Source of the DNA: Escherichia coli
GTDB lineage: Bacteria > Pseudomonadota > Gammaproteobacteria > Enterobacterales > Enterobacteriaceae
Direction: 5' to 3' (one strand)
Assembly (NCBI RefSeq): GCF_003334405.1
Contig: NZ_QOWM01000012.1
Length of the DNA stretch: 64,000 nucleotides
Shown: positions 15,613-20,078 of the stretch, in pieces
Layout: each line of letters starts with the position of its first letter
How positions within the stretch are numbered: the first letter of the stretch is position 1
Program-made: the position numbers and the translations under genes
The notes under the pieces: generated by a model
Told to the model about the DNA's origin: nothing
Database searches by the model: none
The model's input: the letters and a program-made list of their open reading frames with translations, nothing else

Positions 15613-15641
15613 TAAAGTTTTGCCGCCTGTTAACCGCTTTA
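15613..15641 (+). promoter_or_regulatory. Candidate sigma28-like promoter for lfgM-lfgN
   Basis: Exact -35 TAAAGTTT at 15613-15620, then a partial -10 (ACCGCTTT, spacer 12) versus GCCGATAA; 38 bp upstream of the lfgM ATG. Confidence 0.35.
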
Positions 15642-16398: not shown

Positions 16399-16525
16399 CG
16401 ACAATACCTTCCCCCATCGCGGAAACGGATTTTCCGCCTGATTGCCAATCCCTTGTTTTTGACTACAAAAAATCCCGGCACGCTTATTGCACATCCTGCA
16501 CAGCATTAAAGACTGGAAGCCACCT

Positions 16526-17455
16526 ATGAGTTTTATTGAATGTTACGAACCGGAATACGTGCGCAATTTTATGACGCAATACCCCGGTTCGCCTTTATAC
16601 GTCCGCAAGGTGTGGAAAAACGAGATTCGCCTGAGCCTGATGCTGACAGAGCCAGAAAGCTGCGAAGCGATGCTCAACGATGTCAGGGCCTTTGATTTAC
16701 AGCTCACCTACCGTCCTGTGGAAGAAAATGCCGCAGAGCTTTCCGCGCGCGATGCGATAGTAAACCAGGTGATTTTGAGTACCCTCACGCTCCGTGATTT
16801 AACACCAGAACTGTCATTGTATGCCGTCGGTATCCTGCTCTCCCGCGCCAGTAAAATGCCGGGCAGAGACGGAGATATTCTTGCCCGTTTGACGACGCTG
16901 CCGCAGGCGCTGGCCGATCATGCGAAAAAAGGCATCCTACAGGCACAGTTCGCCCAGCTGCCGCCCGTGCCACAGCTGGTGCGTCACCTGGCCACGTTAC
17001 TCGGGAGTTTTACGTTTGACTGGTCGATTTTGCCGGAAAGCCCGCGCAAAACTTCGCTGCCGTTGCAGATGCCTTTGCTGACGCTGCATGACGCTAACAG
17101 CGAAGCCCTGTTACAACAGCAGCTTCAGACGCAGTGGCAAACCACCTGGCAACAGCATTTTGCCACCGCGCCCTGGATGATGCGTAACTGGCTGATTTAC
17201 CGCGTTTACCACGATGTGATTGGGCAGACTGACGGGGCGGATTATTTCCCGCTGGTGTGCGATTTTTATCTCCTCCGCACGTTAATCAGTTTATGGACGC
17301 TGGATGGTTCTTCGCTGCGGCAGGAGGATATTTTCGCCCTCTTTGCCATGTTTGAACGCTGGCGAGCCAGTGAAAATGCGCTGTTGGTTCGCCAGCAAAT
17401 TCAGTCGTTATGTGCCGCCGACCCGCTGCTTTCAGCGTTTTCGCTGCTAACGTGA
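16526..17455 (+). CDS. Hypothetical protein in the flagellar modification island
   Basis: 309-aa ORF from MSFIECYEPEYVRNF.. (RBS GGAAG); Gln/Leu-rich, no family recognised by eye; codirectional with lfgN and the glycosyltransferase gene. Confidence 0.5.
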   Translation: MSFIECYEPEYVRNFMTQYPGSPLYVRKVWKNEIRLSLMLTEPESCEAMLNDVRAFDLQLTYRPVEENAAELSARDAIVNQVILSTLTLRDLTPELSLYAVGILLSRASKMPGRDGDILARLTTLPQALADHAKKGILQAQFAQLPPVPQLVRHLATLLGSFTFDWSILPESPRKTSLPLQMPLLTLHDANSEALLQQQLQTQWQTTWQQHFATAPWMMRNWLIYRVYHDVIGQTDGADYFPLVCDFYLLRTLISLWTLDGSSLRQEDIFALFAMFERWRASENALLVRQQIQSLCAADPLLSAFSLLT

Positions 17456-17457
17456 GT

Positions 17458-17600
17458 CGCTCTGTGCGCGCTTTGCCCCTCACCCTAACCCTCTCCCCAA
17501 AGGGGCGAGGGGACCGATCGAGCACAGTGTTAAAATCGGCGCTGATTTTCTCCCTCTCCCTGTGGGAGAGGGTTGGGGTGAGGGCATCAGCGCGCACATT
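17458..17600. repeat. GC-rich imperfect inverted repeat, boxC-like intergenic element
   Basis: gcccctcaccctaaccctctccccaaaggggcgagggg ... ctctccctctccctgtgggagagggttggggtgagggc; the family assignment is from memory. Confidence 0.4.
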
Positions 17601-17633
17601 CATCACATTCACCCATTAACTCACCCAAACACC

Positions 17634-20078
17634 ATGCCAACACCAACCATCATCAAAACACTCAACACCCACCGCGAAAAACCGTTTGTCAGCGTCGTCA
17701 CGCCAACCTGGAACCGCGGCGCATTCCTGCCGTACCTGCTCTATATGTACCGCTATCAGGATTACCCGGCAGACCGCCGCGAACTCATCATCCTCGACGA
17801 TTCCCCACAAAGCCATCAACACATCATCGACCGCCTGACCAATGGCACGCCGGAAGCCTTTAACATCCGCTACATCCATCACCCGGAAAAACTGCCGCTG
17901 GGCAAAAAACGCAACATGCTCAACGAACTGGCGCGCGGCGAATACATCCTCTGCATGGACGATGACGACTACTACCCGGCAGATAAAATCTCTTACACCA
18001 TCGCCATGATGCAAAAACACCGGGCGCTCATCTCCGGCTCCGATCAGATCCCCATCTGGTACAGCCACATCAACCGCATCTTTCAAAGCCGCAGCTTTGG
18101 CCCGCATAACATCCTCAACGGCACCTTTTGCTATCACCGTAACTACCTGAAAAAGCACCGTTACGACGATGATTGCAATTTAGGCGAAGAGAAACGTTTC
18201 ACCGACAATTTCAGCGTAAACCCGCTGCAACTGCCCGGCGAGCGCACGATTCTGTGTATCTCGCATAGTCAAAACACCTTTGATAAAGATTTTATTCTCG
18301 GGGCCAGCACGCCAGTAAACGCGGCGCTTACGGATATCGTCCGCGATCCGCTGCTGCGCAATGCTTATCTGAGTCTGCATAACGCCACTCATCACCAGGC
18401 GATCAACCATCAGGCGATCGATCAGATCGTTCTGCTGAATCTGGATAAACGCCCGGATCGCTTACAACAGATCCGTGAAGAACTGGCATTGCTGCATATT
18501 CCACCTGAGAAGATCACCCGCCTTGCCGCCAGTGAAGATGAAAACGGTCAACGGGGCCGCCGTCAGTCGCACTTACAGGCGCTGCGCCTGGCGCAACAGC
18601 ACGGCTGGCAAAACTACCTGCTGCTGGAAGATGACGCGGTTATTCTCAAGCAGGAGAAACATATTCAGGTACTGAACACGCTGCTGGCGAGCCTGGCGAA
18701 AATTCCCTGGCAGGTGATGATCCTCGGTGGCGAAATTTCGCAGGGAACGATGCTAAAAAGTTTGCCGGGGCTGGTGCACGCGCGGGACTGCCGCAAAGTG
18801 TGCGCGTATCTGGTGAACAGCCGCTACTACCCGCAACTGGCGCAGCAGATGAGCAACGATGAGCACTCGCTGGAAGCCTGCTGGCAGCCGCTGCTACGCG
18901 CCGACAAATGGCTGGCCTGTTACCCGAGCCTTTGCTACCAGCGACCGGGTTTTAGTGATATCGAGAAAAAAACGACTGATAATATTGCTCACTATTTCAA
19001 TAAGTTACCCGTAGCCACCAAGCCATCTACATTACCCATCGCCGATACCATCGGCTTTTTTATGGAAACCTCATTCCACTACACGCTGTACCGCCCAATC
19101 ATCACCGCTCTACAGGCGCAGGGGCAGAGCTGCACACTAGTGATCAATGACCGCGTGTTTAAACCGTTTCTTGATGAGATGCTGGAAACACTGAAAAACA
19201 TCGACGATCCGCAGCTTAAAGGTATGCGTCTGTCAGAAATGCAGACACATGGTCAGCGGGTGAAATGCCTGGTCAGCCCCTACCACACGCCTGCGCTCAA
19301 TGGCCTGGCGGCGGTGAACATCCGCGCTATGTACGGCTTAGCCAAAGAGACGTGGAACCACGCCGACTGGAATCGTTTTTACCAAAGCATTTTGTGTTAT
19401 AGCCACTACAGTCAGCAGGCGCTGGCGCATTTCGGCAGCGCAAAAGTGGTCGGCAACCCGCGCTTCGACGCCTGGCATAACGGCACGTTCGATCGCGCGT
19501 TGCCGGAAAACATCCAATCAGATTACCGTAAACCTACGGTGCTCTATGCCCCAACGTTTAGCGCATTAAGCTCCCTGCCCCACTGGGCTGAAAAATTGGG
19601 CCGCTTGAGCGGTGATGTGAACCTGATTTGCAAACTGCACCATGGCACCTGCTCACGCCCGGAAGAAGCAGCATCGCTGGCCCTGGTGCGCAGGCATTTA
19701 AAACAGCGCACCGACTCCGCCCGCCACACGCTGGCGCTGCTGGCAAAAGCCGATTACGTGCTGACCGATAACAGCGGGTTTATTTTCGATGCTATCCACG
19801 TTGATAAGCGGGTGATCCTGCTCGACTTTCCGGGCATGAATGATTTGCTCGACGGTGAGAAAAGTTATTCCACGGCAGAGAGCGCCGACCAGCGAATCCG
19901 CGAAATATTGCCGGTTGCTCATGATGTTGCAGAACTGCGTTATTTGTTGTCAGAGGCGTTTGACTGGGGGTCGGTGCAGGCGCGGCTTACGGAGATTCGC
20001 CATCACTATTGCGATGCGTTTATGGATGGCAAGGCGGGAGAACGGGCGGCGATTGTGATTGTGGAGGCGCTGGGGTAA
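17634..20078 (+). CDS. Three-module putative glycosyltransferase: GT2-like N terminus, GT25-like middle, TagF-like CDP-glycerol glycerophosphotransferase C terminus
   Basis: N terminus VSVVTPTWNRGAFLP..ILDDSP..CMDDDDYY (GT2 DxD); middle IVLLNLDKRPDRLQQIREEL.. (GT25-like); C terminus PTVLYAPTFS.. and YVLTDNSGFIFDAIHVDKRVILLDFP (TagB/TagF-like); start taken at ATG 17634 because the track start lies in the repeat. Confidence 0.7.
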   Translation: MPTPTIIKTLNTHREKPFVSVVTPTWNRGAFLPYLLYMYRYQDYPADRRELIILDDSPQSHQHIIDRLTNGTPEAFNIRYIHHPEKLPLGKKRNMLNELARGEYILCMDDDDYYPADKISYTIAMMQKHRALISGSDQIPIWYSHINRIFQSRSFGPHNILNGTFCYHRNYLKKHRYDDDCNLGEEKRFTDNFSVNPLQLPGERTILCISHSQNTFDKDFILGASTPVNAALTDIVRDPLLRNAYLSLHNATHHQAINHQAIDQIVLLNLDKRPDRLQQIREELALLHIPPEKITRLAASEDENGQRGRRQSHLQALRLAQQHGWQNYLLLEDDAVILKQEKHIQVLNTLLASLAKIPWQVMILGGEISQGTMLKSLPGLVHARDCRKVCAYLVNSRYYPQLAQQMSNDEHSLEACWQPLLRADKWLACYPSLCYQRPGFSDIEKKTTDNIAHYFNKLPVATKPSTLPIADTIGFFMETSFHYTLYRPIITALQAQGQSCTLVINDRVFKPFLDEMLETLKNIDDPQLKGMRLSEMQTHGQRVKCLVSPYHTPALNGLAAVNIRAMYGLAKETWNHADWNRFYQSILCYSHYSQQALAHFGSAKVVGNPRFDAWHNGTFDRALPENIQSDYRKPTVLYAPTFSALSSLPHWAEKLGRLSGDVNLICKLHHGTCSRPEEAASLALVRRHLKQRTDSARHTLALLAKADYVLTDNSGFIFDAIHVDKRVILLDFPGMNDLLDGEKSYSTAESADQRIREILPVAHDVAELRYLLSEAFDWGSVQARLTEIRHHYCDAFMDGKAGERAAIVIVEALG

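Follow-up and report, generated by a model that had tools for sequence, protein, structure and literature searches.

An inverted pair of BoxC (PIT/TMECO) repeats between lafV and a glycosyltransferase gene in the Flag-2 locus of Escherichia coli

Among the G+C-rich repeats found between the genes of Escherichia coli there is one that has successively been named BoxC, PIT element and TMECO (Bergler 1992; Hoyne et al. 2000; Holder et al. 2015, PMC4666352). The family comprises about 20–30 intergenic copies per E. coli genome, with 23 in strain MG1655, and its core follows the consensus CCCTCNCCC-N3-6-GGGNGAGGG-N3-GGGNGAGGG (PMC4666352). Five MG1655 loci hold two units as an inverted pair, and in each of them one unit is of type A, with TTA as its second loop, and the other of type B, with CCG (PMC4666352). 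The G-rich strand of a unit forms an intrastrand purine-motif triplex in vitro; no stable TMECO triplex was found in vivo (PMC4666352). PIT elements showed neither promoter nor terminator activity and had no effect on RNA polymerase, as far as the work of Hoyne and Maher 2002 is summarised in PMC4666352.

Like BoxC, the REP/BIME (PU) elements are short G+C-rich repeats between genes, imperfect palindromes that are often arranged as inverted pairs, but they reach hundreds of copies per genome, whereas BoxC has about 20. REP/BIME elements are transcribed within operons, and their hairpins can stabilise the upstream mRNA. The ERIC/IRU and Correia (NEMIS) elements are similar to the site described below in their length of about 100–160 bp, their long terminal inverted repeats and their location in transcribed spacers; the hairpins of Correia elements are substrates of RNase III. 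We know of no dedicated transposase (RAYT) or binding protein for BoxC. In PMC2267715, BoxC is kept apart from PU-BIME as a family of its own.

The window, i.e., the whole 64-kb stretch of E. coli DNA analysed here, contains such a palindrome within the Flag-2 (lateral flagella) locus. The 4.5 kb around it match many complete E. coli chromosomes at 99.9%. The RefSeq gene order is flgH to flgB (minus strand), then flgA, flgM, flgN, a hypothetical protein and a glycosyltransferase (GT) on the plus strand, then a cytidylyltransferase, fliJ, fliI, fliH, fliG, fliF and fliE (minus strand) and a sigma-54 activator. The palindrome lies in variable region 1 of Flag-2, which extends between lfiJ and lfgN and encodes flagellin-modifying enzymes, of which LafV and the GT2 have both been described (PMC6993521). 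The protein encoded upstream of the palindrome, named "hypothetical protein" in some RefSeq genomes and "lysine-N-methylase" in others, is LafV-like, a homologue of the flagellin lysine methylase, and scores 42.6 bits against the NCBIfam model NF038110, under the cut-off of 85. The N-terminal domain of the GT gave weak matches to WcaA, TuaG and similar models, far below the NCBIfam cut-offs. The repeat pair occupies a 178-bp spacer between these two genes and is intergenic, falling between the lafV stop (17455) and the GT ATG (17634), and the open reading frames that cross it are spurious. The features of the site are collected in Table 1.

Table 1. Features of the lafV-GT spacer and its neighbourhood (positions in the 64-kb window)
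Feature	Position	Strand	Remarks
Sigma-54-like promoter motif CGGCAC-N5-TTGCA	16476..16491	+	35 nt upstream of lafV; one consensus mismatch
LafV / FliB-like lysine N-methylase gene, 309 aa	16526..17455	+	RefSeq CDS
Whole 136-bp imperfect palindrome	17463..17598		Inverted BoxC unit pair; from arms, RNA and DNA folds
Type A BoxC unit with flanks	17463..17527	-	GTGCTCGATCGGTC, TMECO core, CAAAGCGCGCACA (minus-strand reading)
TMECO core, type A with one mismatch	17476..17511	-	CCCTCGCCCCTTTGGGGAGAGGGTTAGGGTGAGGGG; fits consensus
Linker, 10 nt, TGTTAAAATC	17528..17537		Read from sequence and unit-flank comparison
Type B-like BoxC unit with flanks	17538..17598	+	GGCGCTGATTTTCT, core, CATCAGCGCGCACA
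TMECO core, type B-like, TTG for CCG in second loop	17552..17585	+	CCCTCTCCCTGTGGGAGAGGGTTGGGGTGAGGGC; fits consensus
Spurious N-terminal extension of the GT reading frame, VGEGWGEGISAHIHHIHPLTHPNT	17562..17633	+	Repeat and leader translated
CA-rich GT leader	17599..17633	+	Without Shine-Dalgarno; unpaired in minimum-energy fold
GT2-type glycosyltransferase gene, 814 aa	17634..20078	+	RefSeq CDS WP_001143108.1; true start

The sigma-54-like motif upstream of lafV, in the form GGCAC-N5-TTGC, is kept at the same position in 10 orthologous loci, including those of distant genera. The same form has only four exact hits in the window, and another of these copies lies just upstream of the flgB operon. 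A scan of the interval between the palindrome and the GT ATG for sigma-70-, sigma-28- and sigma-54-like sites found none, and a promoter belonging to the GT gene itself was rejected on that ground. Judging from the motif and its conservation, it is likely to be the start of a lafV-GT transcript containing the BoxC pair, and the two genes probably form a sigma-54 operon that encloses it. The original prediction had regarded the palindrome as standing between an upstream flgMN transcript and the modification genes, which misreads the context: its neighbours on both sides, lafV and GT, are modification genes, and the sigma-54-like promoter stands upstream of lafV. The palindrome is therefore no divider between flgMN and the modification genes.

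The palindrome is made up of two BoxC (PIT/TMECO) repeats in inverted orientation, members of a family already known to occur in many copies between E. coli genes. The consensus pattern, which recovers the 10 published cores in the sequences retrieved for the five K-12 pair loci, gave exactly two matches in the 64-kb window, at 17477-17511 on the minus strand and at 17552-17584 on the plus strand. The left core, CCCTCGCCCCTTTGGGGAGAGGGTTAGGGTGAGGGG (17477-17511 plus the terminal G), is identical to MG1655 TMECO numbers 7, 11 and 15. Its sequence, type A with one mismatch, is among the four TMECO types that were measured by CD, NMR and melting (PMC4666352). The right core, CCCTCTCCCTGTGGGAGAGGGTTGGGGTGAGGG(C) at 17552-17584, has the first loop (TGT) and the length (34 nt) of type B, and it matches the K-12 type B copy at hrpB-mrcB in both the core and the 3' flank CATCAGCGCGCAC, with the exception of the second loop. 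This loop is TTG here, unlike the CCG of canonical type B, and it reads TCG or CCG in sister alleles. As in all five K-12 pairs, a type A and a type B unit thus stand on opposite strands, the right loop being derived.

Each unit consists of a C-rich block, a loop and two G-rich blocks, with about 13 nt of conserved flank per side. Some 13–15 nt on either side of the cores are common to K-12 copies, e.g., GTGCTCGATCGGTC before type A cores, and the flanks of the type A unit are shared with the K-12 type A copies at hrpB-mrcB, gcvP-ygfF and alx-sstT. The G-rich ends of both units point outward, and the pair therefore forms an imperfect palindrome. Among the five K-12 pairs, only that at lldD-trmL has the G-rich ends outward as well, and the pair described here has additional perfect terminal repeats of 10 bp as a further difference from the described family.

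The element had been called "boxC-like" from the sequence, and the name was well chosen, as both halves fit the published consensus exactly and this very copy is present in Table S8 of Holder et al. 2015. The entries in question, rows 119 and 120 from strain ATCC 8739 (NC_010468, 3694841-3694806 and 3694882-3694915), are identical in sequence to the two cores. ATCC 8739 is 100% identical to the window over the palindrome, and the BoxC pair was thus already catalogued at this locus. None of the 5426 complete E. coli genomes lacked a match to the palindrome; the number of matching places per genome had a median of 20 and reached 34 at most. Among the papers of the library searched, nothing relevant on TMECO, PIT or BoxC repeats was found after 2015. 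The REP consensus was sought in the palindrome and is absent, the sequences being unrelated. There is likewise no sequence similarity to ERIC/IRU or Correia elements, from which the BoxC pair also differs in being a composite of two units without a target-site duplication.

An inverted repeat of about 140 bp had been proposed for 17458-17633. The repeat is real, but slightly narrower: its arms, of 35 nt apiece, lie at 17463-17497 and 17564-17598, are 86% complementary and stand 66 nt apart, which delimits a palindrome of 136 bp. The arm motif GGGAGAGGGTTGGGGTGAGGG, with at most three mismatches, has two sites in the 64-kb window, both inside the palindrome, against 0.01 expected from shuffled sequences. 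Compared with its own reverse complement, the palindrome differs at 56 positions, all of them between positions 11 and 126, and its termini are perfect inverted repeats of 10 bp (TGTGCGCGCT / AGCGCGCACA).

Hairpin potential is strong on either strand. The RNA folding that had been suggested as a check bore out the expected stable hairpin, with -93.1 kcal/mol for the plus strand against -56 +/- 4.3 for shuffled sequences (z = -8.7; 0 of 200 shuffles as good). The minus-strand RNA folds at -89.3 kcal/mol (shuffle mean -64.6; z = -5.6) and the single-stranded DNA at -48.1 kcal/mol (shuffle mean -23.5; z = -8.7). A search of 16400-18600 against Rfam 15 with a permissive threshold gave nothing above the gathering threshold and returned only sub-threshold models of plant and animal microRNA precursors, the best score being 34.4 bits against a threshold of 90. 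Membership in a curated RNA family was ruled out, and the sub-threshold matches reflect a generic long hairpin.

The location of a G+C-rich stem-loop directly after a stop codon is reminiscent of an intrinsic terminator. However, such terminators have a stem of 5–15 bp followed by a U-tract, whereas the stem of the palindrome measures about 60 bp, and a T-run after it was sought and not found, the sequence there being TTCATCACATTC. The terminator scan did not report the large hairpin, its sole call being a weak internal stem of 7 bp at 17525-17544. A canonical intrinsic terminator was rejected for want of a T-run after the large stem. Positions 17599-17640 are unpaired in the minimum-energy RNA fold, and the start-codon region of the GT gene is therefore not occluded by the hairpin. 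The motif CTCACCCAAAC within the GT leader (17620-17630) is complementary to the G-rich arm at 10 of 11 positions. Attenuation or insulation of the modification genes from the flgMN transcript, as originally proposed, is not supported, given the missing T-run, the negative published assays on PIT elements and the variability of the site among strains described below.

The beginning of the GT gene was considered together with the repeat, as the mechanically predicted reading frame 17562-20078 (838 aa) opens at GTG 17562, a codon shared by the first loop and the first G block of the right-hand BoxC unit, while ATG 17634 lies 36 nt beyond the palindrome. If the GTG were used, the repeat would encode an N-terminal extension of the GT. 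The frame is open from that codon, but the GTG is buried in a stem of the -93 kcal/mol hairpin and lacks a preceding Shine-Dalgarno sequence. RefSeq places the start at the equivalent of 17634 in every other allele and in all genomes inspected. In the repeat-free E. coli allele of strain AR_0055, an in-frame TAA precedes the homologous ATG by 9 nt, so that repeat-free alleles have no extension. The GT orthologues of Citrobacter, Phytobacter, Leminorella and others begin at a corresponding ATG, 10–17 codons before the conserved block IVKTLDTGREKPFVSVVTPTWNR. Translation from GTG 17562 can be practically discounted. RefSeq, the repeat-free allele and the orthologues all agree with the earlier suggestion that 17562 is a false start and ATG 17634 the true one; the 838-aa call is wrong, and the protein should be annotated as 814 aa from 17634.

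The structure of the site is unstable, both between strains and between sister species. At least 80% of the 4.5-kb stretch from flgM to the GT gene is held by 1278 complete E. coli genomes. By approximate counts, about 739 of these 1278 cover at least 80% of 17250-17850, and most of the others belong to a class with 67% coverage that is typified by AR_0055. In AR_0055, the spacer measures 46 bp and has no repeat. Only one unit, of type A and on the plus strand (A+), is present in the 112-bp spacer of WP4-S18, and also in E. whittamii and Escherichia sp. MOD1-EC7003; the 106-bp spacer of XJ6.1 has the same single unit minus one G block. The arrangement of the window, type A on the minus strand followed by type B on the plus strand (A- then B+, 178-bp spacer), is found in SCU-172 and Escherichia sp. 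E1V33. The opposite order, B- then A+, occurs in N96, where the spacer measures 189 bp, and in Pseudocitrobacter vendiensis. In 33F4, both units lack one G block (159-bp spacer). In M8, the centre is deleted, and a perfect hairpin remains in a 114-bp spacer, with a 23-bp stem at its core and a predicted energy of -73.6 kcal/mol. One Pseudocitrobacter assembly has three units. Hairpin energies predicted for the alleles run from -12 to -93 kcal/mol. Both the deletions and the collapse to a hairpin agree with the "palindrome effect" and with the local variability described for these loci (PMC4666352).

Smaller differences were observed as well. SCU-172 differs from the window at 7 of 136 positions, and some of these differences break pairs. 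In the right-hand unit, the second loop reads CCG, TCG or TTG in different alleles, and the pairing with the left arm is better at each step. Selection for an improved hairpin, instead of homogenisation of the two arms, could be the cause of this series.

In strain QA-1986 630, the order of the units is B- then A+, and the 136 bp are the exact reverse complement of those in the window (136/136), while the flanking sequences match the window at 99.7% and 100%. Since all 56 differences between the two strands fall between positions 11 and 126, the breakpoints of this flip lie within the terminal 10-bp repeats. The exact flip was found in this complete genome only, and because a single genome shows it, an assembly error is possible. 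Synthetic flips of the K-12 pairs at lldD-trmL and hrpB-mrcB had no near-identical match in the 5426 genomes, the best matches of 84.5% and 93.4% being presumed alleles in the native orientation. Inversion as a general and frequent habit of BoxC pairs was rejected, as the flips of these two pairs had no counterpart.

The allele series could also be read in terms of miniature mobile elements that insert, excise and re-insert, so that the number and orientation of the units would result from transposition and not from rearrangement of resident copies. The family is indeed dispersed and multi-copy, the pair ends in the perfect repeats TGTGCGCGCT and AGCGCGCACA, one, two or three units in either orientation occupy the same orthologous site in sister species, and in QA-1986 630 the 136 bp are flipped precisely between unchanged flanks. 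However, no target-site duplication was found in the flanks (GTCGCTC / TTCATCA), and inverted alleles are missing from the 5426 genomes at the two other pair loci tried. Of the features of a MITE, the pair has terminal inverted repeats (perfect over 10 bp, 86% over 35 nt) but lacks a target-site duplication. Because the repeat-free spacer of AR_0055 is unrelated in sequence, there is no clean pair of filled and empty sites by which insertion boundaries could be defined. Moreover, the family has no known transposase and no association with transposons, phages or plasmids, and nearly all E. coli copies stand at conserved loci, 62 in 56 strains (PMC4666352). Transposition of the units is, consequently, a quite improbable source of the variation.

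The spacers of other genera bear on whether a hairpin has a function at this position. At orthologous loci with 52–71% protein identity, BoxC units were sought in the spacer and none were found; these spacers have a short G+C-rich stem-loop and a T-run instead. That of Citrobacter werkmanii has GACCGGGTGAATGCCCGGTC followed by CTTTTTC and that of Phytobacter massiliensis has GCCGGGCCGCAACCCGGC followed by TTTTTTT, and both score as terminator-like. As the orthologous spacers carry such stem-loops, the BoxC pair appears to stand in the place of an ancestral terminator-like hairpin. Some hairpin is present in every version of the spacer, i.e., in the repeat-containing alleles, in the repeat-free E. 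coli allele and in the Citrobacter orthologues, and a stem-loop could perhaps be required here. The terminator-like hairpins of Citrobacter and Phytobacter leave room for some hairpin function at the spacer.

On these grounds, the BoxC pair may be regarded as a working RNA element of the lafV-GT mRNA that has replaced the ancestral stem-loop, acting by a partial stop or pause of transcription, by protecting the 3' end of lafV from exonucleases or by RNase III cleavage that uncouples the cistrons. The RNA hairpin is very stable, a small hairpin exists even in the repeat-free E. coli allele, the terminator-like stem-loops with a T-run are found in the C. werkmanii and P. massiliensis spacers, and the changes in the second loop better the pairing of the arms. 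The pair would also be transcribed, as it lies within a probable sigma-54 operon. For REP/BIME and the Correia elements of Neisseria, it is well established that the transcribed repeat influences mRNA stability or RNase III processing. Nevertheless, no U-tract follows the stem, and closely related strains have zero, one, two or truncated units or an inverted pair. A tuned function is hard to reconcile with hairpin energies that vary from -12 to -93 kcal/mol among the alleles. The assays of PIT elements for terminator and promoter activity were negative, in so far as they are summarised in PMC4666352. We consider a working RNA element unlikely.

The whole of the evidence is best explained by an inverted BoxC pair that is a member of its family and a structure-prone passenger without a dedicated role, and we estimate the probability of this reading at about 0.85. 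The pair would be transcribed within the sigma-54-driven lafV-GT mRNA and would form a long hairpin there, with the start-codon region remaining accessible. By analogy with the rest of the family, it probably has no dedicated regulatory role, with at most a modest candidate effect on the stability or processing of the mRNA. Its chief consequence would be local rearrangement, namely deletions from one G block to another, inversion and the collapse into a perfect hairpin, probably caused by a hairpin or non-B DNA that arises during replication.

A more far-reaching proposal is that the BoxC pair has replaced an ancestral terminator or attenuator in the sigma-54-driven lafV-GT operon, that its allele state sets the amount of transcription or of stable mRNA reaching the GT gene, and that the pair rearranges, including by the 136-bp flip, through hairpin-driven template switching. 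This is highly improbable in our estimation. If it were true, strains would differ heritably in the glycosylation of the lateral flagellin according to the allele state (absent, single, pair, inverted pair or collapsed). With its allele series and the terminator-like hairpins of other genera, the site is in any case a convenient test bed for a possible effect of BoxC pairs on the expression of a downstream gene.

With the structure-prone passenger as the preferred reading, the conspicuous palindrome of the lafV-GT spacer is a catalogued repeat and not a locus-specific regulator, and the finding has small weight beyond annotation. The series of alleles at this one site offers a compact illustration of the published claim that such repeats mark unstable spots of the genome.

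The lafV-glycosyltransferase spacer of other genera carries a short G+C-rich stem-loop followed by a T-run, with a terminator-like score (Table), and the BoxC unit was absent from these spacers. The BoxC repeat of this E. coli lineage stands where other genera have the terminator-like hairpin. BoxC units do occur at the same spacer site in three loci labelled Pseudocitrobacter (L009, L014 and L019) and in a metagenome-assembled genome labelled 'Citrobacter sp.' (L010), all of which encode a glycosyltransferase that shares 92-95% identity with the one from E. coli, whereas true Citrobacter orthologues reach about 70% identity at most. The shared site together with this difference in identity suggests either that the Flag-2 region was recently transferred horizontally or that the assemblies are mislabelled.

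Coordinates of the hairpins and promoter-like motifs in the window and in the comparison loci (L)
Feature	Location	Strand	Remark
Collapsed spacer, E. coli M8	L045 460-573		deletion of the centre has left a perfect hairpin, -73.6 kcal/mol, whose core is a 23-bp stem
Terminator-like stem-loop	L015 2414-2440		Citrobacter werkmanii
Terminator-like stem-loop	L029 2434-2458		Phytobacter massiliensis
Similar hairpins	L016-L018, L020-L022, L024, L027, L028, L030, L031
Sigma-54-like motif GGCAC-N5-TTGC	window 16476-16491	+	35 nt upstream of lafV
Sigma-54-like motif GGCAC-N5-TTGC	window ~14830	-	immediately upstream of the flgB operon
Sigma-28-like motif TAAAGTTT-N12-ACCGCTTT	window 15613-15640	+	upstream of flgM (15679); 4/16 mismatches, a threshold at which matches are frequent (83 on the window plus strand)

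Several E. coli alleles differ in the repeat itself. Strains M8, 33F4 and XJ6.1 (L045, L044 and L046, respectively) carry derived versions of this spacer; the BoxC units of 33F4 and XJ6.1 have lost one 12-nt G block, which is the pattern expected from slippage between the two direct G-block repeats. In the type B unit, the second loop (window 17573-17575) runs from CCG through TCG to TTG when the window is compared with the orthologous loci L008, L010, L013 and L014, and every C-to-T step lets the loop form one more base pair with the opposite arm's TAA. Such a series is consistent with arm-to-arm homogenisation or with selection that favours a better hairpin.

In E. coli QA-1986 630 (L043, NZ_CP101920.1, positions 389-524), the 136-bp element of window 17463-17598 is present as its exact reverse complement, while the flanks on its two sides match the window at 99.7% and 100% identity. 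This exact flip was found in only one of the 5426 genomes; it may have arisen by a recent inversion or through an error in the assembly. The breakpoints of such a putative inversion must fall in the terminal 10-bp inverted repeat.

The glycosyltransferase leader (window 17599-17633) is CA-rich and lacks a Shine-Dalgarno sequence, and the same is true of the leaders of the repeat-free allele and of Citrobacter. It contains CTCACCCAAAC (window 17620-17630), a copy of part of the left arm that is complementary at 10 of 11 positions to GTTGGGGTGAG of the right arm. This copy and two motifs close to it, TTCACCC and CTTACCC, may be the remnant of an older, decayed BoxC unit.

The protein family encoded at window 16526-17455 is named 'hypothetical protein' or 'lysine-N-methylase' by RefSeq, depending on the genome, and the product scored 42.6 bits against the FliB model NF038110, under the cut-off of 85. 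The sigma-54-like motif upstream of lafV is kept in ten orthologous loci. This conservation, along with the positions of the two sigma-54-like motifs, suggests that lafV and the glycosyltransferase gene form one sigma-54 (LafK-dependent) operon, apart from flgMN.
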